The notes beneath the pieces were generated by a model. That model worked only from the letters and a program-made list of their open reading frames with translations. It did not search any database and was not told where the DNA came from. This document shows, piece after piece, positions 14,539 through 37,987 of a DNA stretch of 64,000 nt (position 1 is its first letter; each line of letters starts with the position of its first letter). A program made the translations under genes and the position numbers. The stretch spans positions 675,188 to 739,187 of the forward strand of contig CAWHRJ010000002.1 of NCBI GenBank assembly GCA_963831685.1. The letters are read 5' to 3'. This DNA is from an uncultured Pseudomonadota bacterium (GTDB taxonomy: Bacteria; Myxococcota_A; Polyangia; Fen-1088).

Positions 14539-15011
14539 TGACCCAGCCTCCAGCCCATACCGCAGCCGCACCACCCCGCTCCCGAGCGCCTCACTCCCGA
14601 CGAACCGTAGCCGCACCTTCCCCGCCAGCCCCGCCGCCTACGGCACCTCGAACACCCCGGTCACGCCCACCGCCCCGTCAATCGCCGGCGCGACCAGCAA
14701 GCTTGATCTCGTCGACCACCCCCGCCGCCAGCAGCGAGCCGTTCACGTTGCCGCCACCCTCGACGAGCAACCGCTTGATGCCGAGCTCGCGTCCGAGCAG
14801 CTCGAACAGCGGCCGCGCCGCCATCTCATCATCCGCCGCCACGACGTACGACACGCCGTCGCCCGCCAGCTCGGCGAGGTGGGCGTCCGGCACGCCCGGG
14901 CCGAGCAGCACGACGGCGTGGTCGCCTCCGATGTCGGGCTTGGCGAAGTGCAGCTTGCCGCGGCGGTCGAAGGCGATCGCGTACGTCCCGGCGTCGCGCT
15001 TCGCGAAGTGG
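14539..15011. repeat. Direct repeat copy A (pairs with 16465-16936)
   Basis: Base-by-base comparison by eye shows scattered mismatches and one 1-nt indel over about 470 nt. Confidence 0.8.
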
Positions 15012-16464: not shown

Positions 16465-16936
16465 TCACCCCGCCTCGACTCCATACCGTAGCCGAACCAC
16501 CCCGCTCCCAACCGCCTCACTCCCGACGAACCGTAACCGCACCTTCCCCGCCAGCCCCGCCGCCTCCGGCACCTCGAACACCCCCGTCACGCCCACCGCC
16601 CCGTCGATCGCCGGCGCGACCAGCAAGCTGATCTCGTCGACGACCCCCGCCGCCAGCAGCAACCCGTTTACGTTGCCGCCGCCCTCGACGAGCAGCCGCT
16701 TGATGCCGAGCTCGCGTCCGAGCAGCTCGAACAGCGGGCGCGCCGCCATCGCCTCGTCGGGCGCCACGACGTACGACACGCTGTCGCCCGCCAGCTCGGC
16801 GAGGTGGGCGTCCGGGACGCCCGGGCCGAGCAGCACGACGACGTGGTCGCCGCCGATGTCGGGCTTGGCGAAGTGCAGCTTGCCCGAGCGGTCGAAGGCG
16901 ATCGCGTACGTCCCGGCGTCGCGCTTCGCGAAGTGG
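16465..16936. repeat. Direct repeat copy B (pairs with 14539-15011)
   Basis: See copy A. Confidence 0.8.
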
Positions 16937-21359: not shown

Positions 21360-22670
21360 TCAGGGCGTGATGCGACCGATCTTGTTGGCGGCTGATTCGG
21401 TGAACCAGATGTTGCCGTCGGCACCGGCCGCGAAGAAGTACGCCGCCGCCTGGTCGGTCGGCGGCGTGAACTCGGTGAGGACGCCTTGCGGCGTCAGGCG
21501 GCCGACCTTGTAGCCGTTGCTCTCGCCGAACCAGAGGTTGCCGTCGGGGCCGGCGATGATGGAGGTCGGCCCGGCCAGATTGACCCCCTGCATGGGCCGG
21601 ATGGGAAACTCGCTGATGGTGCCGGTCGGCGTGATGCGGGCAATCCGGTCCAGATCGCCCTCGACGAACCAGATGTTTCCGTCGGGTCCGTTCGTGAGGA
21701 ACGTCGGGGCGGCGTAGGCCGAGGGGACCGAGAACTCGCCCGTGACGGTTCCCGTCTTCGTCACGCGCGCGATCTTGTTCGTGTTGGCCTCGGCGAACCA
21801 GAGGTTGCCGTCGGGTCCGGCGATGATTCCCTGGGGACCGGTGGCGGTCGAGAAGACCGGCAGCTCGGTGACCACGCCCGCCGTCGTGATGGTGGCGAGG
21901 CGATTGCCGTACTCTTCGGTGAACCAGAGGTTGCCGTCGGGACCGCTGGTGATGTCGTATGGGCCGCCGTGCAACGTCGGCACAGGCGAGAACTCCGTCA
22001 CGACGCCGGCGAGCGTGAAGCGGCCGATCCTGTTCCCGTCGACCTCGGTGAACCAGAGGTTGCCGTCGGGGCCGTTGGTGATCCGGAACGGGGTGATTGT
22101 GCTGGTCGAAATCACTGGGAACTCGGTGACGACGCCTGCCGTGGTAATTCGCGCGATCCGGTTGCCGGTCTCCTCGGTGAAATAGAGGTTGCCGTCCGGG
22201 GCCGCGACGATGCCGCCCGGGGCGCAGTTGTCCGTCGGGATTGCGAACTCGACGATGGTGCCGGAGGGCGGCCGCCCGCCCGCCCCACCGGTGCCTTGGA
22301 TGCCGCCGGCACCGCCGGTGGCGATCGTCCCGCCGCTGCCGACGATGCCGCCCGTGGCGACCGTTCCGCCGCTGCCGACGATGCCGCCCGTAGCGACGCT
22401 GCCGCCGGTGCCGGTGCCGCCGTCGACGAAGCTTCCGCCCGAGCCCGGCGCGCCGGCAGCGCCGCCGTCGCCGAGAACGACCACGCAGCGATCGGAGAGA
22501 CAGACGAGGCCGACGTCGCAGGTTCCGTTGCCGTAGCAGGTGCAGCGCTCGGCGCCCTGGCTGCAGGCGTCGGTCTGCGGGCTTCCGGATCCTCCGTGGC
22601 AGTCGACGCCGGTGCCGAGGGCCAGCCCGATGACCAGCAGCATGCGGGCGCAGCAACTTCTCGCAGGCAT
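21360..22670 (-). CDS. Secreted Vgb (virginiamycin B lyase)-like beta-propeller repeat protein
   Basis: MPARSCCARMLLVIGLALGTGVDC, then a Gly-rich linker, then about seven repeats of GPDGNLWFTE...N.I.RIT..G..TEF. Confidence 0.8.
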   Translation of the reverse strand: MPARSCCARMLLVIGLALGTGVDCHGGSGSPQTDACSQGAERCTCYGNGTCDVGLVCLSDRCVVVLGDGGAAGAPGSGGSFVDGGTGTGGSVATGGIVGSGGTVATGGIVGSGGTIATGGAGGIQGTGGAGGRPPSGTIVEFAIPTDNCAPGGIVAAPDGNLYFTEETGNRIARITTAGVVTEFPVISTSTITPFRITNGPDGNLWFTEVDGNRIGRFTLAGVVTEFSPVPTLHGGPYDITSGPDGNLWFTEEYGNRLATITTAGVVTELPVFSTATGPQGIIAGPDGNLWFAEANTNKIARVTKTGTVTGEFSVPSAYAAPTFLTNGPDGNIWFVEGDLDRIARITPTGTISEFPIRPMQGVNLAGPTSIIAGPDGNLWFGESNGYKVGRLTPQGVLTEFTPPTDQAAAYFFAAGADGNIWFTESAANKIGRITP

Positions 22671-24243: not shown

Positions 24244-24909
24244 ATGCGAGCTTATCGGGGGACGTTGGGCGGCTTGGGGATTCTCGCGTTGGCCGCGGTG
24301 GTCGGGTGCACGGGCGGCCCGCCCAATGGCAGCACCGGCACTGGGGGAGCGGGCGGCGTACCGGCCATGCATCGCGCGACCGCCATGGCCTGTTCGGGGG
24401 AGCTGGCCGAGGCGGGCGCGCCGATCTCGATGCCTGACGGTGGTCCGACCGGCCCCTCCTCGACGCCGTACCCCATCGCACAGGATGGCAGTTTCATCGG
24501 CTGCAACTCGGACAGCGACTGCCCGCCCTGTCCAAACGGGCAGCGCGATCATTGCTTTGGGGAGCCGAGTCTCCCTTCGTTCCAATATTGCGCTTGCGAC
24601 CAGTGCAACAGCGATCAGGACTGCGGCGCCACCGGGGCTTGCGTTTGCAATGCAACCGGCTGGTCGAACATGCCCCTGGGAACCCGGTGTGTATCGGCCA
24701 ACTGCCGGGTCGATGCCGACTGCGGGCCCGGCGGATTCTGTTCTCCGACGCCAAACATAGAGCGGCTATGCTACTCGCCTGGCTATTACTGCCACACGGC
24801 GGCCGACCAATGCGTGAACGACACCGATTGCGGGTCCGCCGAGGTGTGCAGCTACTCGTCCGCAACGGGCGCGTGGAGCTGCACGGCGATCGCCTGCGGC
24901 GGCGGGTAA
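24244..24909 (+). CDS. Small Cys-rich secreted protein, family member 1
   Basis: Signal peptide plus lipobox (LALAAVVGC). DSDCPPCPNGQ, CNSDQDCG, CRVDADCGPGGFCSP, YYCHTAADQCVNDTDC, SSATGAWSCTAIAC. Confidence 0.7.
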   Translation: MRAYRGTLGGLGILALAAVVGCTGGPPNGSTGTGGAGGVPAMHRATAMACSGELAEAGAPISMPDGGPTGPSSTPYPIAQDGSFIGCNSDSDCPPCPNGQRDHCFGEPSLPSFQYCACDQCNSDQDCGATGACVCNATGWSNMPLGTRCVSANCRVDADCGPGGFCSPTPNIERLCYSPGYYCHTAADQCVNDTDCGSAEVCSYSSATGAWSCTAIACGGG

Positions 24910-25186: not shown

Positions 25187-25840
25187 ATGGCTTACATGCA
25201 GGGTTGTCGGCGAACGTCAGGTGCTTGGGGTACTTTCGGATTCATCGCGTCGCTGGTGATCTTCGGGTGCACGGGCAACCTGCCCAATGGCACCGGTTCC
25301 GTTCCTCTGTCGGGGATTCCCACCGTGCATCGCGCGACCGCGACGGTCTGTTCGGGAGAGCTGGCCGAGGCGGGCGTTCCGACCTCGATCTATGACGGCG
25401 GTCCGACCGGCCCCACGGCGCCGGATGGCGGCGCCATCACCTGTGCCACGGACAGCGATTGCCCGCCCTGTCAAAACGGGCAGCTCGATCACTGTGTTCT
25501 CGAGTACCTCGCCACAGGCAGCAGCAACAGGTGCTTTTGCGACGAATGCAACAGCGACCAGGACTGCGGCGGCACGGCGGTTTGCGCCTGCAAGAATGCC
25601 GTCTGGCCGGGCGACCTCCTCGGGAACCTTTGCATAGGGGCCGACTGTCGGGTCGATGCCGACTGCGGCCCCGGCGGCTTCTGTTCTCCCGCACGGGGTG
25701 CTTGCGGCGGCCGGGGTTACTACTGCCACACAGCGGCCGACACCTGCCTGAACGACACCGACTGCCCAGCCGGAATCCCGTGCGACTACTCGGCCGCAAC
25801 GGGCGCCTGGAGTTGCACCACGGACGCTTGCGGCGGCTAG
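25187..25840 (+). CDS. Small Cys-rich secreted protein, family member 2
   Basis: Collinear with 24244..24909 (DSDCPPCQNGQ, CNSDQDCGG, CRVDADCGPGGFCSP, YYCHTAADTCLNDTDC, SAATGAWSCTTDAC). Both share the GGCTTACATGC start context. Confidence 0.7.
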   Translation: MAYMQGCRRTSGAWGTFGFIASLVIFGCTGNLPNGTGSVPLSGIPTVHRATATVCSGELAEAGVPTSIYDGGPTGPTAPDGGAITCATDSDCPPCQNGQLDHCVLEYLATGSSNRCFCDECNSDQDCGGTAVCACKNAVWPGDLLGNLCIGADCRVDADCGPGGFCSPARGACGGRGYYCHTAADTCLNDTDCPAGIPCDYSAATGAWSCTTDACGG

Positions 25841-26395: not shown

Positions 26396-27024
26396 CTAGA
26401 GTGCGCCGAACGAATGGATCAGCGCAACCTGCTCGCCGGGGCCGTGGACGCCTTCGATGAGGATCCCTTCGACGTCGGCGGTCTTCGAGGGGCCCGTGCA
26501 GAAGATGACGTTCGGGTCGCCGCCGAGCGCGGCGATGGCGCTGGCCACGTCGGGCAGGATGCGGGCGGGCGCGACGACGGCGACGTGGATCCAGGGGGCC
26601 AGCGCGCCGAGGCGGGTTGCGGTGGTGGCGTCGTCGAGGATCAGGGAGCCGGTCTCGGCGATGGCGCCGCGCGCGCGGGTGATGCCGAAGCGGTAGTCGT
26701 CGATGCGGCCGCGGTCGAGCGCGGTCTCGAGCGTGAGGCCGCCGCCGAGCGCGCGACGTCAGCCAGCCGGCGAGCGCCGGGTCGCAGTAGCCGTGCGTCG
26801 CGCCCTGCTCCTTCAGCCACGCGCCCAGCGCAGCGGGATCGGTGAAGAAGCGGCCGCGCACCGACTCGAGCCGCTCGCGAAAGCGCGAGACGAGGTCGCC
26901 GGGCGCGCGGGCGCCGAGCGTCAACGCCACGTCGGGCGCGTACTCGCGGGAGCGGCTGCTTGTCCGCCACGCCGGCGAGCGCCGTCTTCACGCGATCGAA
27001 GATCAGCCGGCGCGCGTCGCTCAT
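26396..27024 (-). pseudogene. lutC: LutC (LUD domain) L-lactate utilisation protein, two frameshifts
   Basis: MSDARRLIFDRVKTALAG..., then ...LVSRFRERLESVRGRFF...CDPALAGWL, then ALGGGLTLETALDRGRIDDYRFGITRARGAIAETGSLILD...VIFCTGPSKTADVEGILIEGVHGPGE. The three segments are in three frames, with shifts near 26940 and 26760. Confidence 0.8.
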
Positions 27025-28446
27025 GACGGCGTCGCTGGCGTCGCCCGGCTTCGCCTGGCGCCTCTGCTGCGCCGAGCCACTTGCGGAAGGCGCCGCCGCG
27101 CCAGGGCGGCAGCGTGTGGTTCTGGTTCCAGACGCGCAGCGCGCGCGGGCGCAGCGGGCCCGGAATCAATCCCAGCAGCTTCCCGGCCAAAAGCGCGCGG
27201 CGCCAGGAGGCCGGGCGCGAGGCGAGGCGTGCGAACGAGGCCATCGACGGCGACGCGCCGGCCGGGCGCGCGCCGGCGCGCTTGCCGCGGTCGCGCAGGC
27301 GCAGCAGCAGATCGGGGATCGGGATGTTGACCGGGCAGACCTCGTTGCAGGCGCCGCACAGGCTGGAGGCGCTTGCGGCAGGTCGGCCAGCTCCGAAGTC
27401 GATCCCCGGCGAGCAGCGGCGTCAGCACCGCGCCGACCGGCCCGGAGTAGACGCCGCGGTAGGCGTGGCCGCTCGCCTGCCGGTAGACCGGGCAGACGTT
27501 CAGGCAGGCGCCGCAGCGAATGCAGCGCAGGATCTCGCGGTAGTCCCCGCCGAGGACGCGCGTGCGGCCGTTGTCGAGGAAGATGACGTGCATCTCGTCG
27601 GGGCCGTCGAGCTGGCCGGCGGCGCGCGGGCCGGCAGATGAACTCGGTGTAGACCGACAGCTGCTGCCCGGTCGCCGAGCGCGCCAGCAGGTTGAGGAAG
27701 CACGCCGAGGTCGCGATCGCGCGGGACGAGCTTCTCGATCCCGCACGAGCGCGATGTGACAGCCGGTGGCCGCCAGGCAGAAGCGCGAGTTGCCCTCGTT
27801 GGTCACCAGCACCAGGCGCCCGCTCTCGGCGGAGACGAAGTTGGCGCCGGTGATGCCGACGTCGGCCGCGAGGTACTTGCGGCGCAGGTACTCGCGCGCG
27901 CGGCGGGTGATGACCTCGGGCGTGTCGTCGTAGGCGCCGAGGCCGTGCCCCTCGAAGGTGCGCGCCATCTCGCGCCGGTCGCGGTGCATGATCGGCTTGA
28001 CGATGTGGCTCGGCTTGTCGGCGTCGAGCTGCACGACGAACTCGCCGAGATCGGTCTCGATCGACTCGATTCCGTGCCGCTCGAGAAATGCCCCCAGCTC
28101 GATCTCCTCGGTCGCCATGCTCTTGGTCTTGACGACGCGCTTGGCGCCGCGCCCCTCGAGGATCGCCGAGCACGGTCCGGCGGCCTCCTCGGCGTCCGCG
28201 GCGAAGTGCACCTTGGCGCCGTTCGCGCTGCAGGCGCGCCTCGGCGCGTTCCAGGTAGACGTCCAGGTGATCGAGCGCGTGCTGCTTGATGTCGCCGGCC
28301 AGGCGGCGCAGCGCATCGGGATCGGCGAAGTCGCGCGTGAGCGTCTTGATCCGCTTGTCGTACTCGGCCTTGCTGCCGAGTCGGACGGCGTTCCGGCGCC
28401 CCTGACTCTGCCCCGCAGCGAAGGCGTCGATGGGCTCCTCGCTCAC
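27021..28446 (-). pseudogene. lutB: LutB (4Fe-4S iron-sulfur) L-lactate utilisation protein, at least five frameshifts
   Basis: GTG start in a GTGA overlap with the lutA stop. The segments DIKQHALDHLDVYLERAE / NGAKVHFAADAEEA...GANFVSAESGRLVLVTNEGNSRFC / GIEKLVPRDRDLGVL / LNLLARSATGQQLSVYTEFI / MHVIFLDNGRT..CIRCGACLNVCPVY...GPVGAVLTPLL / SSLCGACNEVCPVNIPIPDLLL alternate between frames. The shifts lie near 28235, 27745, 27700, 27640 and 27404-27407. Confidence 0.8.
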
Positions 28447-29227
28447 GCGCGGACCTCGGCGCGCGACTGGAGCGCGTCGCGCAGCACCTGCGCCAGATGC
28501 AACGTGCGCAGCGGCCGCCCGGCCTTCTCGGCCAGCCCGGCGACGTGCATGAGACAGCTCGAGTCGCCGGAGACCAGCACGTCGGCCCGGGCCTCCAGGA
28601 CGTGCTCGATCTTCAAGGTCCCGATCGCGCGCGAAATCTTCGGGAACGCGACCGAGAACGTCCCGCCGAACCCGCAACACTGCTCCCCCTCACCGAATCT
28701 CGACGACCTCGACGCCCTCGATCGATCGCAGCAGTGCCAGCGCCCCCTCGGCGTAGGCCGTCCCGCGCGAGTGGCACGAGCGGTGAAACGCGACCCGCAT
28801 TGGCAGCTTCCCCGGCCAGCGCGAGACGCCGAGGTGGCGCACCACGAAGTCCCCCAGCTCCCACGTCCGCTGCCCGAGCGCGCCGACCTCCGCGCTGTCT
28901 GCCTCGCCCTCGAACAGCAGCAGCGCGCCGTGCGACACCATCCGCGCGCACGATCCCGACGGGACCACCACCGGCGCCGCGTCGCCGAACACCCGCAGCC
29001 CGTGACGCGCGACCGTCCGCGCCGCCGGCCAGTCGCCGCTGTTGAACGCCGGCTGCCCGCAACAGGTCTGGTCCTCGGGGAACGTCGACCTCGCACCCGA
29101 GGTGCTCCAGCACCTCCACCGTCGCCCGCGCCACGTCGTCGAAGAACGCGTCGCAAAGACAGGTCGCCATCAACTGGACGCGCGGCGGGCTCACGTCGGC
29201 GACGTTAACCAGCGCCGAGAACAACAT
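28443..29227 (-). pseudogene. lutA: LutA (CCG-domain Fe-S oxidoreductase) L-lactate utilisation protein, two frameshifts
   Basis: VQLMATCLCDAFFDDVARATVEVLEHLGCEVD / EDQTCCGQPAFNSGDW...VVPSGSCARMV...HRSCHSRG / EQCCGFGGTFSVAFP...SGDSSCLMH. The shifts are at the GGGG run 29077-29080 and the CCCCC run 28686-28690. Confidence 0.8.
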
Positions 29228-29248: not shown

Positions 29249-29275
29249 GCATACATGGGTATGCTCGAAGTATGC
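29249..29275. promoter_or_regulatory. Candidate vapBC operator
   Basis: Inverted repeat GCATAC-atgg-GTATGC (29249-29264) plus a third GTATGC half-site (29270-29275) overlapping the vapB ATG. Confidence 0.35.
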
Positions 29276-29556
29276 GTAGGATTACGATCAGCCTGGATGA
29301 CGAGCTTGCGCGCCTGGCTGAGGCGGAAGTCCGGGCGGGACGCGCCCCTTCTGTGAGCGCTTGGATCGCGGATGCGATCCGCACGAAGGCGCGCGCCCGA
29401 GCCGAGCTCATCGCCGACTTCGAAGAGCTCGAACGTCGCGACCCGACGCCTCCTGAAATAATCGAGTCGACAGCGCGTGCGCTCGGGTTGCCTCGCAGTG
29501 TCGTTCTGAAAGCTCTCGGTCGCCGTGGTCGCGGTGGCGGCCGGCGGGCGGCGTGA
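29272..29556 (+). CDS. vapB: Ribbon-helix-helix antitoxin (VapB-like)
   Basis: The MRRITISLDDELARLAE N-terminus is RHH-like. GTGA overlap with the PIN gene. Confidence 0.7.
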   Translation: MRRITISLDDELARLAEAEVRAGRAPSVSAWIADAIRTKARARAELIADFEELERRDPTPPEIIESTARALGLPRSVVLKALGRRGRGGGRRAA

Positions 29557-29933
29557 CGAGCACCGTTCTGGACGCGGGCGCCTTGATCGCGCTCGAGCGA
29601 GGCGCCGCCAGCGTCCGTCCGTACGTTTTACTGGCTCGTCTCGCCGAGACGACGCTCGTCACCAGCGCGGCGGTGGTTGCCCAGGTCTGGCGAGGCGGCA
29701 GCCGGCAGGCACGGCTTACCCGCTTCCTCAACAGCGACCTCGTCACCGAGATCCCGCTCGACCCCGATGCGGCGCGCCGGATTGGCGTCCTGGCGGCGGC
29801 GGTCGGTTCGCGCGACGTCGTCGACGGACACGTCGCGCTCCTGGCGCTCGATCGCAACGCAGTCGTGCTCTCCAGCGATCCCGACGACATCGCCCGCTGG
29901 GGCGTGTCGGACGAGCGGATCGTCCGCTGTTGA
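29553..29933 (+). CDS. vapC: PIN-domain toxin (VapC-like)
   Basis: 126 aa. VLDAGALIALERG ... DGHVALLA ... VLSSDPDD carries the acidic PIN residues. Confidence 0.8.
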   Translation: MTSTVLDAGALIALERGAASVRPYVLLARLAETTLVTSAAVVAQVWRGGSRQARLTRFLNSDLVTEIPLDPDAARRIGVLAAAVGSRDVVDGHVALLALDRNAVVLSSDPDDIARWGVSDERIVRC

Positions 29934-29971
29934 ACGGCGGCGGCACTTGCGGCGCGCCTCAGGGCGCGGCT

Positions 29972-30181
29972 TTAGCCGCCGCCCCTGCTGGCCAGCCGCC
30001 TGAGTGCCTCGTTCACGGATTCCGATGTCGGAAACTTCTCGGCAACGTCCGGATCGAGGAGGACCACATTCGTCCCCTGCCGGTAGCGCTCAACATACTT
30101 ACCACGTACCCCACCCGTGAGGTCGTACTCAGGCAGCAGCTCGTCGTCTTCGTCGTCAGGCTTCATACTGCTCTCGCTCAT
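29972..30181 (-). CDS. BrnA-like antitoxin partner of the decayed BrnT
   Basis: 69 aa. LPEYDLTGGVRGKYVERYRQGTNVVLLDPDVAEKFPTSESVNEALRRL is a pattern I recognise from small antitoxins encoded after BrnT/DUF497 toxins. Confidence 0.6.
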   Translation of the reverse strand: MSESSMKPDDEDDELLPEYDLTGGVRGKYVERYRQGTNVVLLDPDVAEKFPTSESVNEALRRLASRGGG

Positions 30182-30425
30182 GACGAGTCATGACTCTAGC
30201 ATCGATGATCCGCGTCGTCCCGTCGCGGTCCGTATGAACACCGCGAGCAGGCGACCTCGACGGCTCAACCCAAACTGGACCATCCGTTCCTCAGCCCACG
30301 AGTGCCTCGGATCGGTGAATCGTGACAGAAAGCGGATCGTCGAAGACGGTGGACGCTTCGGCGAAGGACACGCCGTGCTTGGCCAGGTTTCGCGCTGCCT
30401 TCTCGGCGTCCCATTCGAATCGCAT
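30156..30425 (-). pseudogene. brnT: BrnT (DUF497) toxin with two frameshifts
   Basis: MRFEWDAEKAARNLAKHGVSFAEASTVFDDPLSVTI, then a shift to EERMVQFGLSRRGRLLAV, then a shift to HTDRDGTTRIIDARVMTRHEREQYEA. The start lies 3 nt after the yfbM-like stop. Confidence 0.7.
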
Positions 30426-30428
30426 CAC

Positions 30429-30923
30429 CTAACTCAGGTACAGGATCATCGAGTCACCCGCTCCTGCCGCTTCAGCGAAGAAGGTGCGCAGGGCTTCGTA
30501 ATAACCTACGACGTACCCTCTCCCTTCGGCTGACCATCCCTCTGGGTAGATTTCGGCGTTGGCGAACTTGTCCGCGTCGAATCCAGACCACAGCTGCTCA
30601 CCCGAGATGCCGCTCAGGGCTCTTGAGACCGCCTGAACATCGTGGGCCGAGAGGCCCCGCGCCGGACCGTACCCAACGTCTTCATCACCAAGCTCTATGC
30701 CACCCATGACCGCGTTCTGGAGCGGTGGTTTCCCTTCCCAAGGGTCGCCCGTGAGCAGGAACTGGATTGCATGCCACGCCTTATCGATATCCAGGTGCTT
30801 CCCATGGGGACGCTCGCCGTTCCCGTCATCAGGGTGCAGGAGCTCCAGGATATCGGACGGATCTTCACGAAGCCGCGCAAGCTGCACCTCGGGGATTCGC
30901 AGGTAGTTGCCGATCATCGACAT
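30429..30923 (-). CDS. YfbM/DUF1877 family protein
   Basis: 164 aa. MSMIGNYLRIPEVQLARL...LDIDKAWHAIQFLLTG... is the typical DUF1877 opening. The ATG lies 8 nt after the attC-like site E. Confidence 0.7.
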   Translation of the reverse strand: MSMIGNYLRIPEVQLARLREDPSDILELLHPDDGNGERPHGKHLDIDKAWHAIQFLLTGDPWEGKPPLQNAVMGGIELGDEDVGYGPARGLSAHDVQAVSRALSGISGEQLWSGFDADKFANAEIYPEGWSAEGRGYVVGYYEALRTFFAEAAGAGDSMILYLS

Positions 30924-30931
30924 GGTCGTCC

Positions 30932-30993
30932 GCCCAACGTTATCGCGTTCAGCGGCCTGGCGCAGCCCCGTCCGCTGGAACGCGTGGTTCGAC
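30932..30993 (-). repeat. attC-like structured repeat E (62 nt)
   Basis: Minus strand: GTCGAAC CAC GCGTTCCAGCGG ACGGGGCTGCGCCAGG CCGCTGAACGC GATAAC GTTGGGC. Confidence 0.6.
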
Positions 30994-31986
30994 AGCGCCT
31001 CCGTCGGCGTGAGCGTCCGAGTCGAAGGTCAGGCTCGACCGACGCACCCACGTCCGTTGCGGCTCGCACCCGAGCTCCGCGACCGCCGGATTCTTCAACA
31101 ACCGAAGCCATTCCCTTTCGGGGACCTCCTCCACTTCCACTCCCTCCACGTCGACCCGAGCGGTACCCCAGCGGATTCCCCCAGGCGACGCGTGAATTGA
31201 AGCACCCGCCTTCAGCGTAGCCACGCGTCTCGTGGCATCCGTCGCCAGCGAGTACACGCCACAACATCCAATCCCACCAACCCCCGTCAAGGCGAGGTAG
31301 CCGACCGTCCCCACCCTTCGCATGTCGGTCGAGGGCGTCCATCCCTGCGCGCGACCTGTACCAGCTTCCCACGCGATCCTGACCCATCCACGACGTCGCT
31401 CGAGGATATCGAAGGTCACCGAGTCGGGCTGAAGGCTGAGGTGCGCCGCATCGGGTTTCGGTGCCTCGTACACGGCGAGGCTCCTTCTTCGTGCGCGCGC
31501 CATCCCGATAGCTGCGACGTTGGGTTCGTGTAGTGGCGCGTGACCTTTGGTCGGGCGGCCGACAAGGAGAACGTCGCAGGGAATGCGGACGTCTTTCGCG
31601 ACGAGCTCCGTACCCAGCGGTATCGACGCCCGCATGACGCCGTTGCGACATCGCAAATCAGAGAGCCTGACAGTCTCATTGACGAAGAGCATTCCGCGCT
31701 CGACAGAGACAGGTTTCCGTAGATGGTGGACGACACTCCCCGGTGCCTCGACCGTGATCGCGGAGCCCATTGTCTCGACCGTGGGTGTAGATCGATCAGA
31801 GAACGTCACACGAACTTTGACCGGATCGGCAAACTCCAGGTCGAAGGGTTCGATGTCGCCCAGAAGGAGCGTCAGTTCGTCGCTTTCGCCCTCCGTGACA
31901 CACCCTGACCCAGCTTGCGCCGGCGCCACCGCCCATCCCAGGACGCCGGTGACGACACCCACCAGAATCGCCGGCCTACCCCGCAC
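30949..31986 (-). CDS. Secreted protein, unknown function (cassette 5)
   Basis: 345-aa ORF, GTG start, signal peptide (ILVGVVTGVLGWAVAPAQA). The stop lies inside repeat E. Confidence 0.5.
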   Translation of the reverse strand: MRGRPAILVGVVTGVLGWAVAPAQAGSGCVTEGESDELTLLLGDIEPFDLEFADPVKVRVTFSDRSTPTVETMGSAITVEAPGSVVHHLRKPVSVERGMLFVNETVRLSDLRCRNGVMRASIPLGTELVAKDVRIPCDVLLVGRPTKGHAPLHEPNVAAIGMARARRRSLAVYEAPKPDAAHLSLQPDSVTFDILERRRGWVRIAWEAGTGRAQGWTPSTDMRRVGTVGYLALTGVGGIGCCGVYSLATDATRRVATLKAGASIHASPGGIRWGTARVDVEGVEVEEVPEREWLRLLKNPAVAELGCEPQRTWVRRSSLTFDSDAHADGGAVEPRVPADGAAPGR

Positions 31987-32026
31987 CTACGAATAGACAA
32001 CCGGCACCCTCTCCCGTTCCCTGTCT

Positions 32027-32091
32027 GTCGAACGCGTTGTGTTCAGCGACGGGCCGGTCGCCGGCCCGTCGGCCGCAACGGGTTGTTGGCC
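32027..32091 (-). repeat. attC-like structured repeat D (65 nt, most divergent)
   Basis: Minus strand: GGCCAAC AACCCGTTGCGGCCGACGGGCCGG CGA CCGGCCCGTCGCTGAACACAACGC GTTCGAC. Confidence 0.45.
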
Positions 32092-32226
32092 GGGCCGCCG
32101 GCCGGGCCCGGTTGGCTTCCGCCGAGGATGATCCTCTTGTCACCGAAGGACGCCACGAGCTCGAGCTGTCCACCGAGGGCGGCGATGTACGCAAGGCTGA
32201 CGCCGACCGCCGGCACAGCGGCTCGC

Positions 32227-33225
32227 TCAGGGCGAGACCTTCCACAGCTGCTGGAAGGTCTGCAGGTAGAGGCTCCCGTCCTCCGCTGCGGCCATCGAAC
32301 AGAACACGAAGCTCAGCGGGTCGTACTGTGCTGCCTTTGCGTCGGCAAGCGAAGGCGTCGTCTCGACGAGCGTGGCGTCTGCCTTGTCGGTCGTGCCGTC
32401 GGCAAGATGATAGATCCGGGTCACGCACTCGGGGCAATCGTTGATCACGATGTAGAAACCGCCCTTTGGATCGCGCGCCGTGCAGATGACGGTGGGAGTG
32501 AATCCCGTGAACGTTGCGACGCCCGAGCCATCCACGTTCCCGTGATAGAGCGGTGAACCGTTGCAGCCAGGCTGATACAAGAACACGCCCGTTGGCGCCG
32601 CGCTCAGACCTTGCAGGGCGCAGTTCTCGGCGTTTTCGAGCAGCGCATTCGGATAGACGAGCATCTGGCTCGTCGAAGAGGCGGTGTACAGACCACCGAC
32701 GTTGACGATGGCGACGCGCTCCGCGGAGATGACGGAGAGTCGGGCCACGTCAATGCTCGAGACGTCGATCCAGGGCTGGGCTACGTGGGCCGACGACGAT
32801 CGAACGACGACCGCGACGGCGGTGCCCGTGGAGGGGGACCCGCTCAGCGCGACGTACAGCAGACCGTCCGGTCCCCTGTCGAGGTCGGTGATCCGGTTCG
32901 TCACCGTGGGTGGCGTCCCGGCAGCCGCCTCTTCGAGGGTCAGGTACGTACTGACGTTCACGCCGTCAATCAACCACACGTTCTCGGTGTCCTCGAAGTA
33001 GACACGGTTCTGAGCGTCCACGGCCATGCCCCCCACGCGTTGCCGCCCACTCCACGGAGCGTTGTCGACGACCATCGTCAGCGTGCGTGGTCCCGAGCCC
33101 GCCTCGCCGCCCCGATCGACCCCGGCATCGACCCGAGCCGCGGGCGACCCTGAACAGCCCAGCTCACCGGCGAGTGCCGACACGATGAGAGGCAGGACGA
33201 TGGACCGCATGGCTCCGGAGTGCAT
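32227..33225 (-). CDS. Secreted lipoprotein, propeller-like, unknown function (cassette 4)
   Basis: 332 aa. MRSIVLPLIVSALAGELGC lipobox. The ATG lies 7 nt after repeat C. Confidence 0.6.
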   Translation of the reverse strand: MHSGAMRSIVLPLIVSALAGELGCSGSPAARVDAGVDRGGEAGSGPRTLTMVVDNAPWSGRQRVGGMAVDAQNRVYFEDTENVWLIDGVNVSTYLTLEEAAAGTPPTVTNRITDLDRGPDGLLYVALSGSPSTGTAVAVVVRSSSAHVAQPWIDVSSIDVARLSVISAERVAIVNVGGLYTASSTSQMLVYPNALLENAENCALQGLSAAPTGVFLYQPGCNGSPLYHGNVDGSGVATFTGFTPTVICTARDPKGGFYIVINDCPECVTRIYHLADGTTDKADATLVETTPSLADAKAAQYDPLSFVFCSMAAAEDGSLYLQTFQQLWKVSP

Positions 33226-33232
33226 CGCCGTC

Positions 33233-33294
33233 CGTCAACGTTATCGCGTTCAGCGGTGGGGCGCAGCCCCGTCCGCTGCAACGCGCGGTTGGAC
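33233..33294 (-). repeat. attC-like structured repeat C (62 nt)
   Basis: Minus strand: GTCCAAC CGC GCGTTGCAGCGG ACGGGGCTGCGCCCCA CCGCTGAACGC GATAAC GTTGACG. Confidence 0.6.
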
Positions 33295-33714
33295 AGCGCC
33301 TCGTCGCTGACGAGGCACGATGAAGAAGGCCGTCGCAATTACGATTATCGCAATGCCGATGGACGCAAAACAGGGTAGTCCGCTCGACAAGGCTGCCGCA
33401 GTGTATGCATGTGCAGCGAGTGCGCGCGGAGGATCGTACTCGCCGCAGTAACTGAAGTAGGCATAAGGCGGCAGGGCGAGAAGGGGAACAAGGATCAGTG
33501 GGCGTCGCTCATGGGATGCGGCCGCGTAGCCACACGCCACCGCCACGAGAAAAGCCGGAAGAATCCATAGGACGCTCAAGACGCCCCAAGGCAACCAGAT
33601 CTCGAGAGCTCGCCCCGCGTGAGACTGGGCAGCCCATCGAGCGGCGCCGTTACACGCGACACCCAGCGCAAGAAATATCCCAGTTACCGCTACGAGTGTT
33701 CCGCCCCTCCTCAT
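33250..33714 (-). CDS. Small multi-TM membrane protein (cassette 3)
   Basis: MRRGGTLVAVTGIFLALGVAC... about four hydrophobic helices. The ATG at 33714 lies 6 nt after repeat B. The ORF-track N-terminal extension is rejected. Confidence 0.55.
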   Translation of the reverse strand: MRRGGTLVAVTGIFLALGVACNGAARWAAQSHAGRALEIWLPWGVLSVLWILPAFLVAVACGYAAASHERRPLILVPLLALPPYAYFSYCGEYDPPRALAAHAYTAAALSSGLPCFASIGIAIIVIATAFFIVPRQRRGAVQPRVAADGAAPHR

Positions 33715-33720
33715 CCGTCT

Positions 33721-33782
33721 GTCCAACGTTATGGCGTTGAGCGGCGGGGCGAAGCCCCGTCCGCGCCAACGCCGGGTTGGGC
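33721..33782 (-). repeat. attC-like structured repeat B (62 nt)
   Basis: Minus strand: GCCCAAC CCG GCGTTGGCGCGG ACGGGGCTTCGCCCCG CCGCTCAACGC CATAAC GTTGGAC. Confidence 0.6.
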
Positions 33783-34181
33783 AGCTTGACCGCGACGCCG
33801 CTCCAGTCGAAGGCCCTTTACCGCCAAAGCCACCAGGGCGAGCGAGCTGGCCAGGCCGGCGATTCCAACTGCCGTGGCCGAAGCGAACAGCAAGAAGATC
33901 AGTGCCCAAAGGCCGTTCAGGCTGATACAGGCCCACCAAAGTGCGGTCGGGTCCTTCCAAGATGTCGTCCCGAATCCCCGCCGAAGCAATCCGATGTACA
34001 CGACCCAGCCCAGTCCGAAGACGGCCAGGTATGCGACGACGCCACCTATACCCTCGCGTAAAGCGGCCGGGATCTGCGCCGCCAAAAGGATCGCCCAACC
34101 CGTGCCGATGATCGCTGCGATTGCCGCCAGCGTCCGCGAGAGCCGCTCGTCACGATCCGGGATCCAAAGGTCGGTGTCCAT
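33729..34181 (-). CDS. Small multi-TM membrane protein (cassette 2)
   Basis: MDTDLWIPDRDERLSRTLAAIAAIIGTGWAILLAA... about four helices. The ATG at 34181 lies 9 nt after repeat A. Confidence 0.55.
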   Translation of the reverse strand: MDTDLWIPDRDERLSRTLAAIAAIIGTGWAILLAAQIPAALREGIGGVVAYLAVFGLGWVVYIGLLRRGFGTTSWKDPTALWWACISLNGLWALIFLLFASATAVGIAGLASSLALVALAVKGLRLERRRGQAAQPGVGADGASPRRSTP

Positions 34182-34190
34182 CGCCTGTCT

Positions 34191-34252
34191 GCCCAACGTC
34201 GTGGCGTTAACCCGCGGGCCGCAGGCCCGTCGGGTTCAACGCCGGGTTAGCC
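34191..34252 (-). repeat. attC-like structured repeat A (62 nt)
   Basis: Minus strand: GGCTAAC CCG GCGTTGAACCCG ACGGGCCTGCGGCCCG CGGGTTAACGC CACGAC GTTGGGC. The TAA stop of the SMI1 gene sits inside GGCTAAC. Confidence 0.6.
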
Positions 34253-34702
34253 AGCCTTCCCGTATAGGGCCTGGTCACCAGAGAGCACCATCTGGACAAA
34301 GTCGGTGAATGTTTCGGCGATCGGAACGGGAGTACCGTTCGCCACCAGAACAACTTCCATCCGATCGGGCGTCTCGGCAGAGAATCGCGCTCCATAGGCC
34401 CAACACCAATACGAATGGTCGGCGAAGACCACGGTGTTCGCAAGATGTCCCTGTGCGTACTGCGGCGCTTCTTCTTCAACCCGTCGCCACTTGTCGAGGG
34501 ACCAGAGCGTGATGAGGCCATGATCGACGTCGGTCATATCCGCCGTCCCGTTCATGCGTTCGTAGAACGCCCGCGCATCCGCCGGCAAGGTGATGCCTAG
34601 TCTCCGTTCAGTCGACGCGACCTCGTCAGGGCTGCATGGCCGGTTGCGCTGGGCGTCCACGAACGAGGCGACCGCATCTGCGAGTTCGTGTGGCGTTCGC
34701 AT
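34247..34702 (-). CDS. SMI1/KNR4 (SUKH-1) family protein (cassette 1)
   Basis: MRTPHELADAVASFV...VASTERRLGITLPADARAFYERMNG...LWSLDKW...VVFADHSYWCWAYG is the typical SUKH-1 pattern. The ATG at 34702 lies 6 nt after GTTAGCC. Confidence 0.8.
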   Translation of the reverse strand: MRTPHELADAVASFVDAQRNRPCSPDEVASTERRLGITLPADARAFYERMNGTADMTDVDHGLITLWSLDKWRRVEEEAPQYAQGHLANTVVFADHSYWCWAYGARFSAETPDRMEVVLVANGTPVPIAETFTDFVQMVLSGDQALYGKAG

Positions 34703-34708
34703 TGGTCT

Positions 34709-34727
34709 GGCTAACTTTGTATTAACC
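34709..34727 (-). promoter_or_regulatory. attI-like core site preceding cassette 1
   Basis: Minus strand GGTTAATACAAAGTTAGCC. Compare, from memory, the attI1 core CTAAAACAAAGTTAGGC. Confidence 0.35.
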
Positions 34728-34937
34728 AGCAATCTCCCGCTGCCCTAGATTTTTCGCAAGCAGTGACATTGGTCCGTGGGGATGCTGGCAGGCGAGCTCG
34801 GAGCGCAACGATGTCAGACGGTTTCGCAACGCCGGCCCCAAGACGGGCGGGCAACGTAGCCGCGGCCCGGTCTGTATAATCTGCGAAGAGAACCTGTGAC
34901 GCGGGCTACGGGTCGCGGTCGGAGGTCGGACCGCGCG

Positions 34938-37883
34938 TTAGAACTTCACGTCGACGGCGTTGCCGTTGTAGCTAACGCTCTTGTCGGCCTTGGGGGTGAA
35001 CGAGAAACCGACGGGCTTGTCCTTAGCGACCAGCACCACGTCGAAGGTGTGTTGCGGGGGCATTCCCGGGAACGCACCCTCGCGCTTGCCGATGGTGAGG
35101 GTGCGGGTGGCGTCGGTCCAGTGGAGGGGGACGCGCGCGAAGGCGCCGTTTTCGTAGCCGTAGCTCTGGCCGTCGTCCTCGTACAGGGTGAACGTGCCGT
35201 CGGCGCCGGCGTAGACCCACAGGGTGATCGGGTCGGCGGGCTTCTCGTCGGTGTACATGAGCTCGGGGCCGGTCGGGATGATTGAACCGGCGCGGACGTG
35301 GACGGGGATCGAATCGTAGGGCGCCGAGACGTCGATCGACTGACCGCCGGCCGCGGTGCCGCCGGTCCAGAAGTCGTACCAGGCGGGGGCGGTCGGCAGG
35401 TAGACGGTGCGGCTGCGCGCCCGGTAGGTGGTCACCGGGCTCACGAGCAGCGCCGGGCCGAACATGAACTGGTCGCTGACGTCGCGCGCCTTGGTGTCGG
35501 CGCGGAAGTCCATCACCAGCGGGCGCATGATTGTCCCGCCCGCCTGCGTGACGTCGCCGGCCAGCGAATAGAGGTATGGCAGCAGGCGGTAGCGGACGCG
35601 GTCGAACTTCAGCTCGGCTTTGTAGGCGGGGCTCGATTCGCCGCCGAACTCCCACATCTCGCGCTTGGGCGCCTCGCCGTGCACGCGCAAGAGCGGCACG
35701 AAGGTGCCGAACTGGAACCAGCGCGTGTTTAGCTCGCGCCATTCTTCGGTGTCCTCGGCGCTCGGGTGCGCCGTCGCGAAGCGCTCGGGGACGGAGAAGC
35801 CGCCGATGTCCATCGACCAGTACGGGACGCCCGATACCGAGAGGCCGAGGCCGGCCGGGATCTGCGAGCGCAGCGCCGTCCAGGTCGAGGAGATGTCGCC
35901 CGACCAGACCGCGGCGCCGTAGTGCTGCTGCCCGGCGAACGCCGAGCGGGTGAGGATGAAGACGCGCTGATCGGGCGCCACGCCGCGCTGCCCCTCGTAG
36001 ACCGACTTGCTGTTGACCAGCGAGTAGGCGTTGAGCATGCGCGCCCCGGAGCCGAGCGCGGTCGGGTTCATGTGCGTCCGCTGGCCGTCGAGCGTCGGCG
36101 TCGGCAAGAGGTCCGGCTCGGGCGCGTCCAGCCACCAGGCGTCGACGTGCTTGCTGAAGATGTTCGTGTTCATCTGCGACCAGAACAGCTTCCCGGCCTC
36201 CGGGTTGAACGCGTCGTAGAAGGTGTACGGGTAGCCGCCGTCGCCCACCCAGTCGCGCAGCCCCTCCGCCAGGTTGAGGTGGTAGAGAAAACCCAGCGTG
36301 CGCATCGCCTCGAAGTTCTTCGTGCCGGGGTAGTACTTGCCCCACACCGAGATCATGAGGTGCGCGTGCTTGAAGTGGACCTCGCGCACCCACTTGTCCG
36401 GGTCGGGGAAGCGCGCCGGATCGAACTCGTCCGAGCCCCAGGCGTTCTCCTTCCAGTAGAACCAGTCCTGCACGATGGTGTCGAAGGGGATACCGCGCTT
36501 GCGGAAACCGTCGACGACGTCGAGGCTCTGCTTGGAGGTCTCGTAGCGCTGCCGGCTCTGCCAGAGCCCGAGCGTCCAGCGCGGGATCATCGGCGCCGGC
36601 CCGGTGACGCGCCGGTAGCCGGCGACGACGCCGTCCAGCTCGGGGCCGTAGACGAAGTAGTAGTCGATGCCGTCGCCGACCTCCGACCAGAGCGAGGTGG
36701 TGGGCGGCGTGGTCGCGTTCGCGTGGGGAGCAGCGAGCTCTGCTCGCTGCGTACCATCGCGGGGGGCTCCGGGACCCTCTGAGGGTCCCGCGTTGATTGG
36801 CGGCTTCCACAAGAGCTGCACCGTCTCCATGTTCTGGTCCTTGCTCCACTCGAGCCGGATCTTCGCGCGGTGGCCGGCGTCGAGCCGCACGCGCGCGACC
36901 TCCTTCCAGGGCAGCCACCCCTGGCGCCAGTGGTTGATGACCAGGTTGTCGTCGATCCACATCTTGATGCCGCTGTTCGAGAAGGTCTGGAACTGGTAGT
37001 CGCCGGTCACCGGCGGATCGACCTCGCCCGTCCAGCGCACGCTGGCGTTCCCCTCGGGGAGCCCGGCGAAGATGAGCGCGTTCGGCTTCTTCTCCTTGCT
37101 CGACAGCGCCAGGTCGATCACGCGATCGACCCGCTCGCCGTAGAGGTGCTTGAAGTCGGCGCCCTTGTAGAACTGCGCGGTGAACCCGCCCGGTTGGCCC
37201 TTGGCATCGAAGAGGCGGTCGGCCGGGATCGGCTCCCAGGGGCGCAGGTCACCGAAGCGCGTGAACGAGGTGTTGTCCCACAGGACGCCCCACCCCCGGC
37301 TCGACACCAGGAACGGAATGACGATGGTGCCGTTGTGCTGCCAGAGATCCAGGTCGTACCCCTTGATGTCGAGGAGCCCGATCTGGTTCTCGCCGAGCCC
37401 GTACAGCGCCTCGCCGTCGGCCGGCGCCCACTCCTGCCGCACGTGCTGCGTGTTCTCGCCCATCACCGTCGCCGGCATGAGCGTCCGGCCGCTCTCCTCC
37501 AGCAGCGGCGCGCCGCTCGGGTCGAGGAAGGAGACCCGGCCGCTGGCCAGATCGACGCGCGCCTTGAGCTTCGCGGTGGAGAGCGTCGCGGCGCCGCCCG
37601 CCTCGACGAAGTCGAACGGCGCGCCCTCACACTTCTTGGGCTGCGCGGCCAGGCTCTTGCGAACGAAGAACGACTCGTTCTTTGCGTAGGCGACGCGCAC
37701 GACATCGGCGGCGCAGATCTCCAGCTTCAGGAGCGCGTCGCCGAAACGCACGACCACACCGTCGGCCACGCGCTGAACCGACGTCGCCGGGCCGGGCCCG
37801 CAGGCCGATGGACCGGCGCCCTGCGGACCGGCGCACCCGACGATAGCGGCAGACAACACGACCAGGCAAACGGTTCGACGCAC
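34938..37883 (-). CDS. GH31 alpha-xylosidase-type glycoside hydrolase with PA14 insertion, lipoprotein
   Basis: Uninterrupted ORF. A GTG at 37883 is preceded by GAGGAGG and gives MRRTVCLVVLSAAIVGC. PA14-like block (GDYQFQTFSNSGIKMWIDDNLVINHW). GH31 blocks (DAWWLDAPEPD, PYWSMDIGGF, RWFQFGTFVPLLRVHG). Confidence 0.9.
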   Translation of the reverse strand: MRRTVCLVVLSAAIVGCAGPQGAGPSACGPGPATSVQRVADGVVVRFGDALLKLEICAADVVRVAYAKNESFFVRKSLAAQPKKCEGAPFDFVEAGGAATLSTAKLKARVDLASGRVSFLDPSGAPLLEESGRTLMPATVMGENTQHVRQEWAPADGEALYGLGENQIGLLDIKGYDLDLWQHNGTIVIPFLVSSRGWGVLWDNTSFTRFGDLRPWEPIPADRLFDAKGQPGGFTAQFYKGADFKHLYGERVDRVIDLALSSKEKKPNALIFAGLPEGNASVRWTGEVDPPVTGDYQFQTFSNSGIKMWIDDNLVINHWRQGWLPWKEVARVRLDAGHRAKIRLEWSKDQNMETVQLLWKPPINAGPSEGPGAPRDGTQRAELAAPHANATTPPTTSLWSEVGDGIDYYFVYGPELDGVVAGYRRVTGPAPMIPRWTLGLWQSRQRYETSKQSLDVVDGFRKRGIPFDTIVQDWFYWKENAWGSDEFDPARFPDPDKWVREVHFKHAHLMISVWGKYYPGTKNFEAMRTLGFLYHLNLAEGLRDWVGDGGYPYTFYDAFNPEAGKLFWSQMNTNIFSKHVDAWWLDAPEPDLLPTPTLDGQRTHMNPTALGSGARMLNAYSLVNSKSVYEGQRGVAPDQRVFILTRSAFAGQQHYGAAVWSGDISSTWTALRSQIPAGLGLSVSGVPYWSMDIGGFSVPERFATAHPSAEDTEEWRELNTRWFQFGTFVPLLRVHGEAPKREMWEFGGESSPAYKAELKFDRVRYRLLPYLYSLAGDVTQAGGTIMRPLVMDFRADTKARDVSDQFMFGPALLVSPVTTYRARSRTVYLPTAPAWYDFWTGGTAAGGQSIDVSAPYDSIPVHVRAGSIIPTGPELMYTDEKPADPITLWVYAGADGTFTLYEDDGQSYGYENGAFARVPLHWTDATRTLTIGKREGAFPGMPPQHTFDVVLVAKDKPVGFSFTPKADKSVSYNGNAVDVKF

Positions 37884-37987
37884 GGGAGCCTCCTCGAAGG
37901 GCCGCGATATTTCCACGACCGCCGGTCATTGGCTACAACTTCCAGGTATTCCCCGCGCGCGGCGCAGCAGGGTACACTCGCGCGCCC

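Follow-up and report, generated by a model that had tools for sequence, protein, structure and literature searches.

The minus strand of a 64-kb stretch of genomic DNA (hereafter the window), between positions 34925 and 29971, very probably carries a chromosomal integron of a soil bacterium of the class Polyangia (Myxococcota) that comprises an attI site and five attC sites and has lost its integrase gene. This region, which lies at least 29 kb from both ends of the window, was described in the initial annotation as resembling a CALIN, the term for clustered attC sites with no integron integrase (Cury et al. 2016, PMC4889954), and this description is supported by five attC sites on one strand within 3.3 kb, where a CALIN calls for at least two that lie no more than 4 kb apart, and by the fact that the window has no integron integrase. 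Compared with a complete integron, the region has no adjacent functional intI, only ∼19 nt of the 3′ end of the gene being left, and has at the head of the array an attI that is recognized by homology. The presence of both attI and an intI scar points to an integron that lost its integrase rather than to a stray cluster of attC sites. The element is a new example of the CALIN type already described and not a new kind of system. New here are the conserved attI, the intI scar beside a GH31 gene, a relative with the same scar and different cassettes, the fusion in the fourth cassette, and the loss of the terminal attC.

The Five Repeats as attC Sites

Five minus-strand repeats, four of 62 nt and one of 65 nt (attC A–E in Table 1), had been reported in the window, and all five were recovered with their coordinates and terminal heptamers. 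The repeats align at 80% mean column identity, and the same imperfect-palindrome family was also found by general repeat finding (family D15). Two covariance models were used: R1, built from the five window repeats only and run without filters, and R2, built from seven class 1 attC sites only (aadA2, dfrB1, ereA2, blaOXA-2, aac(6′)-IIc, lnu(F), and dfrA14). The class 1 reference set consists of 75 kb around five class 1 integrons of clinical and environmental plasmids, in which the attC sites were delineated with a covariance model and not by consensus matching. As the initial annotation had anticipated for an attC model, R2 matches exactly the five sites in the 64 kb, on the correct strand and over their full length (E 1e-12 to 7e-5). 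These matches score 26–53 bits, and the best other R2 match in the window scores 12.5 bits (E 0.62). In the reciprocal search, the top seven R1 matches in the 75 kb of class 1 DNA are the seven attC sites, again full length and on the cassette strand. Across the window, R1 finds no sixth copy, the next best match (21.9 bits) being the reverse strand of site B. The scattering that had been named as the mark of an ordinary genomic repeat is not seen in the window, where all copies lie within one 3.3-kb stretch and on one strand.

The terminal boxes have the R″ and R′ character of attC sites. Among the R″ boxes, GCCCAAC and GTCCAAC fit RYYYAAC, GTCGAAC is off by one, and GGCTAAC and GGCCAAC have a G at position 2; AAC is present in all. 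The R′ boxes of A, B, and E fit GTTRRRY, and GTT is present in all five. The TAA stop codon of the SMI1_KNR4 gene (34249–34247) falls within GGCTAAC, and the next open reading frame (ORF) begins 6–9 nt past the R′ box at four junctions (A 9, B 6, C 7, and E 8 nt), both as previously stated; at junction D the ORF starts 40 nt past the box. An imperfect hairpin had been proposed for each site and is obtained for each, with DNA-fold z-scores of −1.8 to −4.5. The further proposal of one extra unpaired base after GCGTT in A, B, C, and E holds for A, C, and E, which have a single bulge, and fails for B, which has a 2×1 internal loop; site D folds differently at the base of the hairpin. The bulge lies at model position 16, and the central spacer is asymmetric, with 2–3 nt on one side versus 5 nt on the other. 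The bulged base, which follows the GTT of L″, is a top-strand G in A–D (34237, 33767, 33279, and 32076) and differs in E (30978). A flipped orientation of the sites, suggested by this top-strand G, was rejected on three grounds: the arm with the bulge is the canonical one, the order of ORF and then attC with crossover at the 3′ box gives canonical cassette boundaries, and the class 1 model recognizes the sites on this strand alone.

The repeat belongs to a wider family. A search of GTDB genomes with a 22-base pattern of the window repeat yielded 38 stretches, mostly from soil metagenome-assembled genomes (MAGs) of Polyangia/Myxococcales, with a few from Planctomycetota, Acidobacteriota, Burkholderiales, and others. 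Stretches and loci that were compared with the window carry labels of the form L0xx. R1 matches 130 same-strand sites in the 38 stretches. Alignment A2, which holds the 150 best matches (149 distinct), represents 37 loci; 29 of these have same-strand arrays of at least two sites, which are 43–155 nt long and spaced at a median of 670 nt, and the arrays use a single strand in all loci except one. Four arrays (L016, L022, L032, and L037) adjoin integrases that score 315–469 bits on the NCBIfam model TIGR02249, "integron integrase" (cutoff 265 bits), and share 50–54% identity with IntI1. A recombinase in L014 (33% identity to IntI1) was considered as a fifth integrase and dropped, since it scores 149 bits on TIGR02249, below 265, and is Xer-like. 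In A2, compensatory changes are found in 22 of 25 base pairs and the inner helices are 97% paired, values that shuffled and slid controls come nowhere near. In the helix formed by R″ and R′, pairing is only 83%, which agrees with the expectation for hybrid sites, in which R″, L″, L′, and G would derive from one cassette and TTRRRY from the next.

The IntI crossover lies between the G and the TT of R′, which assigns the TTRRRY 3′ of an attC to the following cassette. In a cassette cut at G|TT, the R″ is therefore expected to pair with the R′ box that opens that cassette. Of 97 consecutive site pairs of the family, 68 have an R″ whose variable 4 nt are the reverse complement of the upstream R′; the same comparison gives 15 of 97 with the R′ physically next to it and 12% when pairs are drawn at random. 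In the window, the match is found in all four intact cassettes, with 7 of 7 bases in cassettes 2, 3, and 5, and the R″ of cassette 1, GGCTAAC, is the reverse complement of GTTAGCC at the attI junction (34715–34709). Complementarity between R″ and the start of the same cassette is thus best read as the footprint of IntI crossover at G|TT, and the five repeats are confidently predicted to be genuine integron attC sites.

A second form of attC, ∼155 nt long, recurs in the family (Table 1). Its central insert of ∼95 nt (...GAACGCC...CGCGACGCCGCGGGCTG.CGCCCGCGGCTCCTCGCGGCCGTGGTACG...) is conserved across unrelated cassettes and genomes.

attI, the Integrase Scar, and the Cassettes

The region between GH31 and cassette 1 holds a scar and a conserved block (Table 1). 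Aligned with the 3′ end of intI and the sequence downstream of it, the scar scores 42 against L032 and 36 against L022; the shuffle maxima are 31 and 27, and none of 300 dinucleotide shuffles reaches the observed scores. The complete integrons L022 and L032 have a homolog of the 76-nt block that precedes cassette 1, placed after intI and before their own first cassette; L005 and L045 have the block as well. Its 15-mer core is unique in the window, where 0 chance matches are expected, and its alignment lies far above shuffles. The sequence immediately 5′ of cassette 1 reads GCTTGCGAAAAATCTAGGGCAGCGGGAGATTGCTGGTTAATACAAAG|TT. In the complete relatives, intI is followed by attI, ∼220 bp past the intI stop codon, and then by the cassettes, all on one strand; in L016, L022, L032, and L037, intI reads toward the cassettes. 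Homology and the position of the crossover together identify the block at 34790–34715 as the predicted attI of the array. No relative of the tyrosine recombinases is detectable in the 64 kb by tblastn with IntI1 (best E-value 0.77), in agreement with the initial annotation; the query was verified to be 100% identical to annotated intI1. With a scar of ∼19 nt beside GH31 and no recombinase in the window, the integrase gene appears to have been deleted almost completely.

A second orphan attI is present in L005 (4058–4116), a 1.1-Mb MAG contig, with an exact 20-mer match to the attI core; the 4 kb upstream of it contain no integron integrase. In this group, attI platforms without an integrase may occur repeatedly.

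Table 1. Features of the integron region and its surroundings in the window, and copies of the long attC form in related stretches. E-values of R2 are approximate.
Feature	Coordinates	Strand	Description
GH31 alpha-xylosidase gene	34938..37916	−	conserved upstream flank; co-oriented with array; stop codon 34940–34938
intI scar	34866..34925	−	starts 12 nt after GH31 stop; last ∼19 nt of intI with stop TAG (34908–34906) and conserved post-intI block
Predicted attI	34715..34790	−	conserved block ending in GGTTAATACAAAG; crossover between G34715 and T34714
Cassette 1	34197..34714	−	starts TTAGCC; SMI1_KNR4 (SUKH-1) ORF 34702–34247 (Pfam PF09346, E 2.6e-11); ends with attC A
attC A	34191..34252	−	62 nt; R1 82.6 bits; R2 53.1 bits, E 1.1e-12; fold −21.9 kcal/mol, z −3.8
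Cassette 2	33727..34196	−	ORF 34181–33729, predicted membrane protein, no family match, runs into attC B; R″ GCCCAAC is reverse complement of start GTTGGGC
attC B	33721..33782	−	62 nt; R1 85.1 bits; R2 52.9 bits, E 1.3e-12
Cassette 3	33239..33726	−	ORF 33714–33250, predicted membrane protein, no family match; R″ GTCCAAC is reverse complement of start GTTGGAC
attC C	33233..33294	−	62 nt; R1 80 bits; R2 42.8 bits, E 1.1e-9; R′ GTTGACG off consensus
"Cassette 4"	32033..33238	−	predicted deletion fusion: 332-aa ORF 33225–32227 without attC of its own, antitoxin 3′ fragment 32216–32043, attC D
attC D	32027..32091	−	65 nt; R1 55.2 bits; R2 26.3 bits, E 6.6e-5
Cassette 5	30938..32032	−	345-aa ORF 31986–30949, no family match; R″ GTCGAAC is reverse complement of start GTTCGAC
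attC E	30932..30993	−	62 nt; R1 80.1 bits; R2 46.3 bits, E 1e-10
Terminal segment without attC	29971..30937	−	DUF1877 30923–30429; broken brnT from 30428; brnA 30181–29972; truncated R″ GGCTAAA 29977–29971
vapB-like antitoxin and PIN (VapC-like) toxin genes	29272..29933	+	convergent with array; PIN domain PF01850; inside strain-variable region, not counted as a cassette
Long attC form, L045	12461–12612, 12903–13056, 14312–14466, 14734–14890		∼155 nt
Long attC form, L027, L018, L019	L027 3472–3625; L018 7208–7360; L019 3006–3159		∼155 nt
Long attC form, further copies	L036 6649–6802; L003 7423–7572; L009 5556–5710; L022 1124–1277		∼155 nt

The array had been described as six consecutive same-strand gene blocks; it consists of four intact cassettes, one deletion fusion, and one terminal segment without attC. 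The intact cassette 1 has a close counterpart elsewhere: window 34715–34185 is 93.6% identical over 531 nt to L027 468–998, and the identity starts exactly at GTTAGCC and ends at ...ACGTT. In L027 this SMI1 cassette lies between two attC sites, but in the window it follows attI. In "cassette 4", the translation of the 57-codon ORF at 32216–32043 matches the C terminus of the helix-turn-helix antitoxin of intact BrnT-type toxin-antitoxin cassettes in L022 (2962–2255) and L017. A deletion appears to have fused the cassette of the 332-aa ORF, with loss of its attC, to the tail of such a toxin-antitoxin cassette. The fusion would explain why the R″ of site D, GGCCAAC, mismatches the start GTTGACG, the sole exception to the footprint in the window.

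The terminal segment is damaged at two points. The brnT gene (30182–30428, minus strand) is broken, in that its first 45 codons match positions 1–35 of BrnT_toxin, a profile of 77 positions, and its C-terminal part (RIIDARVMTRHEREQYEA) lies in another frame; a truncated 44-aa BrnT is also found in an independent Logan contig. The brnA antitoxin gene downstream is intact. Neither R1 nor R2 matches an attC in the terminal segment, and of the R″ box there is only GGCTAAA, whereas the BrnA homolog of L049 has a full attC after it, starting with GGCTAAT. The distal end of the array is thus, to judge from these remnants, eroded.

Family matches among the cassette proteins are to SMI1_KNR4, DUF1877 (Pfam PF08974, E 2.5e-44), and BrnT; the others have no Pfam match, and none has a PADLOC or NCBIfam match. 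No claim of a defense function is made for these proteins, given the empty PADLOC and NCBIfam results. Cassettes typically carry toxin-antitoxin genes and ORFs that match no family. The GC content of the array is 60–66%, versus 68–75% in the flanks. The promoter and terminator scan found no terminator, and none of the five repeats is followed by a T-tract. The conserved block after intI contains GTCACA-16 nt-TATACA, a weak promoter candidate only.

A motif, AGACAGG/GGACGR, stands directly after R′ and just 5′ of the start codons (34197–34185, 33727–33716, 32033–32022, and 30938–30930). Most cassettes, both in the window and in related arrays, have this conserved motif, which might serve them all in ribosome binding or translational coupling and travel with the 5′ end of each cassette.

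Possible Cassette Exchange and Alternative Explanations

The comparison of the locus took in 83 GH31 loci: 80 from metagenomes (1.04 Mb) and the three contigs whose GH31 homologs are closest. The GH31 homologs share 94–63% identity, several being from source-named Polyangia, and the gene is syntenic in L045, L046, and L047. In the closest relative, L045, both flanks are shared at 88–91% identity and the scar stands at the same junction; homology extends through GH31, the scar, and attI to window position 34707 and resumes at lutA (window 29209), such that the vapBC stretch is missing. Between the G|TT of attI and lutA, L045 has 4.5 kb with at least seven unrelated cassettes, several with the ∼155-nt attC. 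Each obeys the R″/R′ footprint, the first being joined at GGTTAATAGAAAG|TTGGAC. Despite the same scar and attI, the window and L045 have no cassette in common, and the junction-precise variation that the initial annotation proposed to look for is observed: cassette content differs, and the change falls exactly at G|TT. In L046 and L047 (84–85% identity), homology ends at the GH31 stop codon and there is no attC. The 83 loci include no IntI, and no attI apart from that of L045. In the 1.04 Mb of related Polyangia DNA, the only two attC matches are a clustered, decayed pair just downstream of GH31 in L049. With so few matches, and those clustered, the repeat does not behave as one dispersed over the genome. 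Variation in what the locus contains coincides exactly with the recombination junction.

The stretch of L049 in question (12886–14175), 3′ of a GH31 ortholog of 81% identity, has no attI. It contains, in order, a gene whose product has a TIR-domain-like beginning, a decayed attC (R′ GTCATGA), a brnA homolog, and a full attC, and it may be what is left of the same locus-bound integron after further decay.

Several points weigh against the assignment of the region as an integron with a lost integrase. R2 is a surrogate for the attC model of IntegronFinder; its column layout and structure were set by R1, which makes it independent in sequence content but not in alignment frame, and its E-values are rough, from a shortened calibration. 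The R′ boxes of C (GTTGACG) and D (GTTCGAC) deviate from GTTRRRY. Deviations of this kind are normal, however: of 12 real class 1 cassettes, a strict RYYYAAC...GTTRRRY regular expression finds the true attC in just 2, and consensus matching was not used as a criterion. The top-strand G bulge, seen in A–D and in 127 of 130 family sites (A2 column 27), makes the second extrahelical base a bottom-strand C and not the usual G, which is found in E and in all class 1 sites recovered here. attC sites with C at this position are recombined efficiently by several integrases (PMC3053210), and the integrases of the family may be co-adapted to it. The ∼30-nt coding remnant of intI alone is nonsignificant versus shuffles, and the claim of a remnant is made because it is continuous with the conserved downstream block. 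No sigma-70 consensus promoter is found at 29800–35000 by a scan that myxobacterial promoters may not fit. No intact intI lies between GH31 and attI in any of the 83 GH31 loci. Finally, the absence of an integrase is established for the 64-kb window, and the rest of the genome lies outside it.

In the proposed mechanism, cassettes would have entered as circles by recombination of the folded bottom-strand attC hairpin with attI or another attC, catalyzed by the IntI tyrosine recombinase. Entry at attI would make cassette 1 the latest arrival, and excision would proceed by attC × attC recombination. The cassettes would be promoterless, with transcription probably reaching them by read-through from GH31 or starting at the weak promoter candidate in the post-intI block. 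Any further excision or insertion would need an integrase encoded elsewhere in the genome, and the chances that such events still occur at the array in this way are about even. On a more specific version, judged just short of even, the deletion of intI predates the split between the window and L045, and the orphan attI has since kept exchanging cassettes through an integrase acting in trans, as a "satellite" platform. The shared scar without a shared cassette argues for such turnover after integrase loss.

The closest alternative, possible though somewhat short of even, is a frozen relic, in which no site-specific recombination took place after the deletion of intI. The difference from L045 would then be due to independent decay or to homologous replacement of the array by incoming DNA that recombined through attI, the conserved attC sites, or the flanks. 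The lack of an integrase in the 64 kb is consistent with a relic, as are the signs of decay (the deletion fusion, the truncated terminal attC, the broken brnT, and the frameshifted lutABC next door) and the report that inactivation of intI in Xanthomonas gives stable arrays (bioRxiv 10.1101/2025.06.18.660453). Moreover, the strain-variable region passes the last attC and takes in vapBC, which site-specific recombination alone does not explain. A relic fits less well with two arrays that have the same scar and attI and zero shared cassettes, and in which both first cassettes are joined exactly at the G|TT of attI with a matching R″, the product of attI × attC insertion. In addition, attI is ∼90% identical between the two, as diverged as the flanks, which argues for inheritance of attI together with the flanks. 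Integrases acting in trans are plausible, since several arrays are often present in a MAG of this group and some MAGs have an intact intI. Ongoing activity in trans and wholesale replacement with decay are rated about equal.

It is very unlikely that the array is instead the distal part of a complete integron that was split by rearrangement, with the integrase and the true attI outside the window. Rearrangement is listed as one origin of CALINs by Cury et al. (PMC4889954), and the inspection covered 64 kb only; the head of the array, however, bears the very block that directly follows intI in complete relatives. The retention of this block together with the last intI codons and stop places the break within intI and not within the array. 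That the repeats are ordinary intergenic hairpins resembling attC (repetitive extragenic palindromes, bacterial interspersed mosaic elements, or terminators) is extremely unlikely: they are indeed GC-rich imperfect palindromes sited after stop codons, with no Rfam family match at gathering thresholds in the window (where no tRNA is found either), but their confinement to 3.3 kb of one strand, the two clustered matches in related DNA, the missing T-tracts, the recognition by the class 1 model, and the location of family members beside integron integrases all speak against it, and the R″/R′ footprint would be left without explanation.

Relation to Known Integrons and Other Features of the Window

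The region resembles the CALINs surveyed by Cury et al. (PMC4889954) in having five attC sites, which is the reported average, and cassettes mostly of unknown function without resistance genes. Loss of the integrase was proposed there as one origin of CALINs; intI pseudogenes were found near only 15 of 279 (5%), and attI was not searchable in most. In contrast, the window has an attI identifiable by homology and a ∼19-nt intI scar, which fix integrase loss as the apparent origin of this CALIN. Similar to the sedentary chromosomal integrons of Xanthomonas downstream of ilvD (bioRxiv 10.1101/2025.06.18.660453), the region occupies a fixed locus common to strains, has lost integrase function, and contains mostly uncharacterized cassettes that differ between strains. 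It differs from them in that the integrase is nearly all deleted and not mutated, and in that the complete relatives of its family have intI co-oriented with the cassettes. In Xanthomonas, moreover, loss of intI is reported to stabilize arrays (same source), whereas the window and L045 share the scar without a common cassette.

Comparison with class 1 attC sites (59-base elements, as in aadA2, dfrB1, and aac(6′)-IIc) shows the same R″-L″...L′-R′ order, position-16 bulge, and asymmetric spacer, with a length of 57–70 nt, and covariance models from either set detect the other. The differences are the bulged base (top C/bottom G in class 1; top G/bottom C in four of five window sites and 127 of 130 family sites), the much GC-richer stems of the window family, and its conserved ∼155-nt form. 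The core of the window attI, ...TAATACAAAG|TTAGCC, resembles what is presumably the core of attI1, ...TAAAACAAAG|TTAGGC. Like attI1, the window attI is placed directly upstream of the first cassette and has an imperfect inverted repeat around the crossover; there is no sequence similarity outside the core. In the complete relatives, attI of this family lies downstream of a co-oriented intI and not upstream of a divergent one. An intI that reads toward the cassettes is known from the "inverted integrase" group of integrons (PMC3575428), which L016, L022, L032, and L037 resemble in gene orientation. Integrons in Myxococcota have been mentioned previously (PMC9668308).

What makes the locus interesting is mainly its orphan attI and the way in which two strains differ. 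The locus is a well-resolved case of the apparent birth of a CALIN, in which the integrase was nearly all deleted and attI and cassettes were left behind. It also documents an attC/attI family of soil Polyangia with a co-oriented integrase, an extrahelical C instead of G, and cassettes common to several arrays. Two strains with a common scar and no common cassettes make a concrete case for integrase-less arrays serviced in trans, which, if true, would bear on the size of the mobilizable cassette reservoir in soil.

Other features of the window lie outside the array. Next to it, lutA, lutB, and lutC (26402–29194, minus strand) are broken up in comparison with the L045 orthologs, each gene running through three reading frames; this reflects either real decay of the operon or assembly indel errors in a stretch of 70–76% GC. 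If assembly error is the cause, frameshift calls elsewhere, such as that in brnT, deserve caution. Long, degenerate 9-/18-nt periodic repeats, rich in GCC/GCCGCC, occur at 22260–22460, 45040–45310, 46480–46800, and 58940–59330 (families D1–D6, D10, D11, and D14) and probably correspond to parts of several large secreted proteins that are glycine-rich and of low complexity. At 21360–22240, six to seven tandem units of ∼129 nt with a conserved ...GAACCAGAGGTTGCCGTCGGG... motif (families D5, D8, D12, and D13) look like a minus-strand gene for a beta-propeller-type repeat protein. The repeat families D7, D16, and D18–D20 correspond to a 460-nt duplication of 93–94% identity, with copies 1.9 kb apart (14541–15003 and 16467–16928), and to a Cys-rich module (CxxDxDC...C) present in three copies in paralogous genes (10913–11109, 24700–24902, and 25643–25836).

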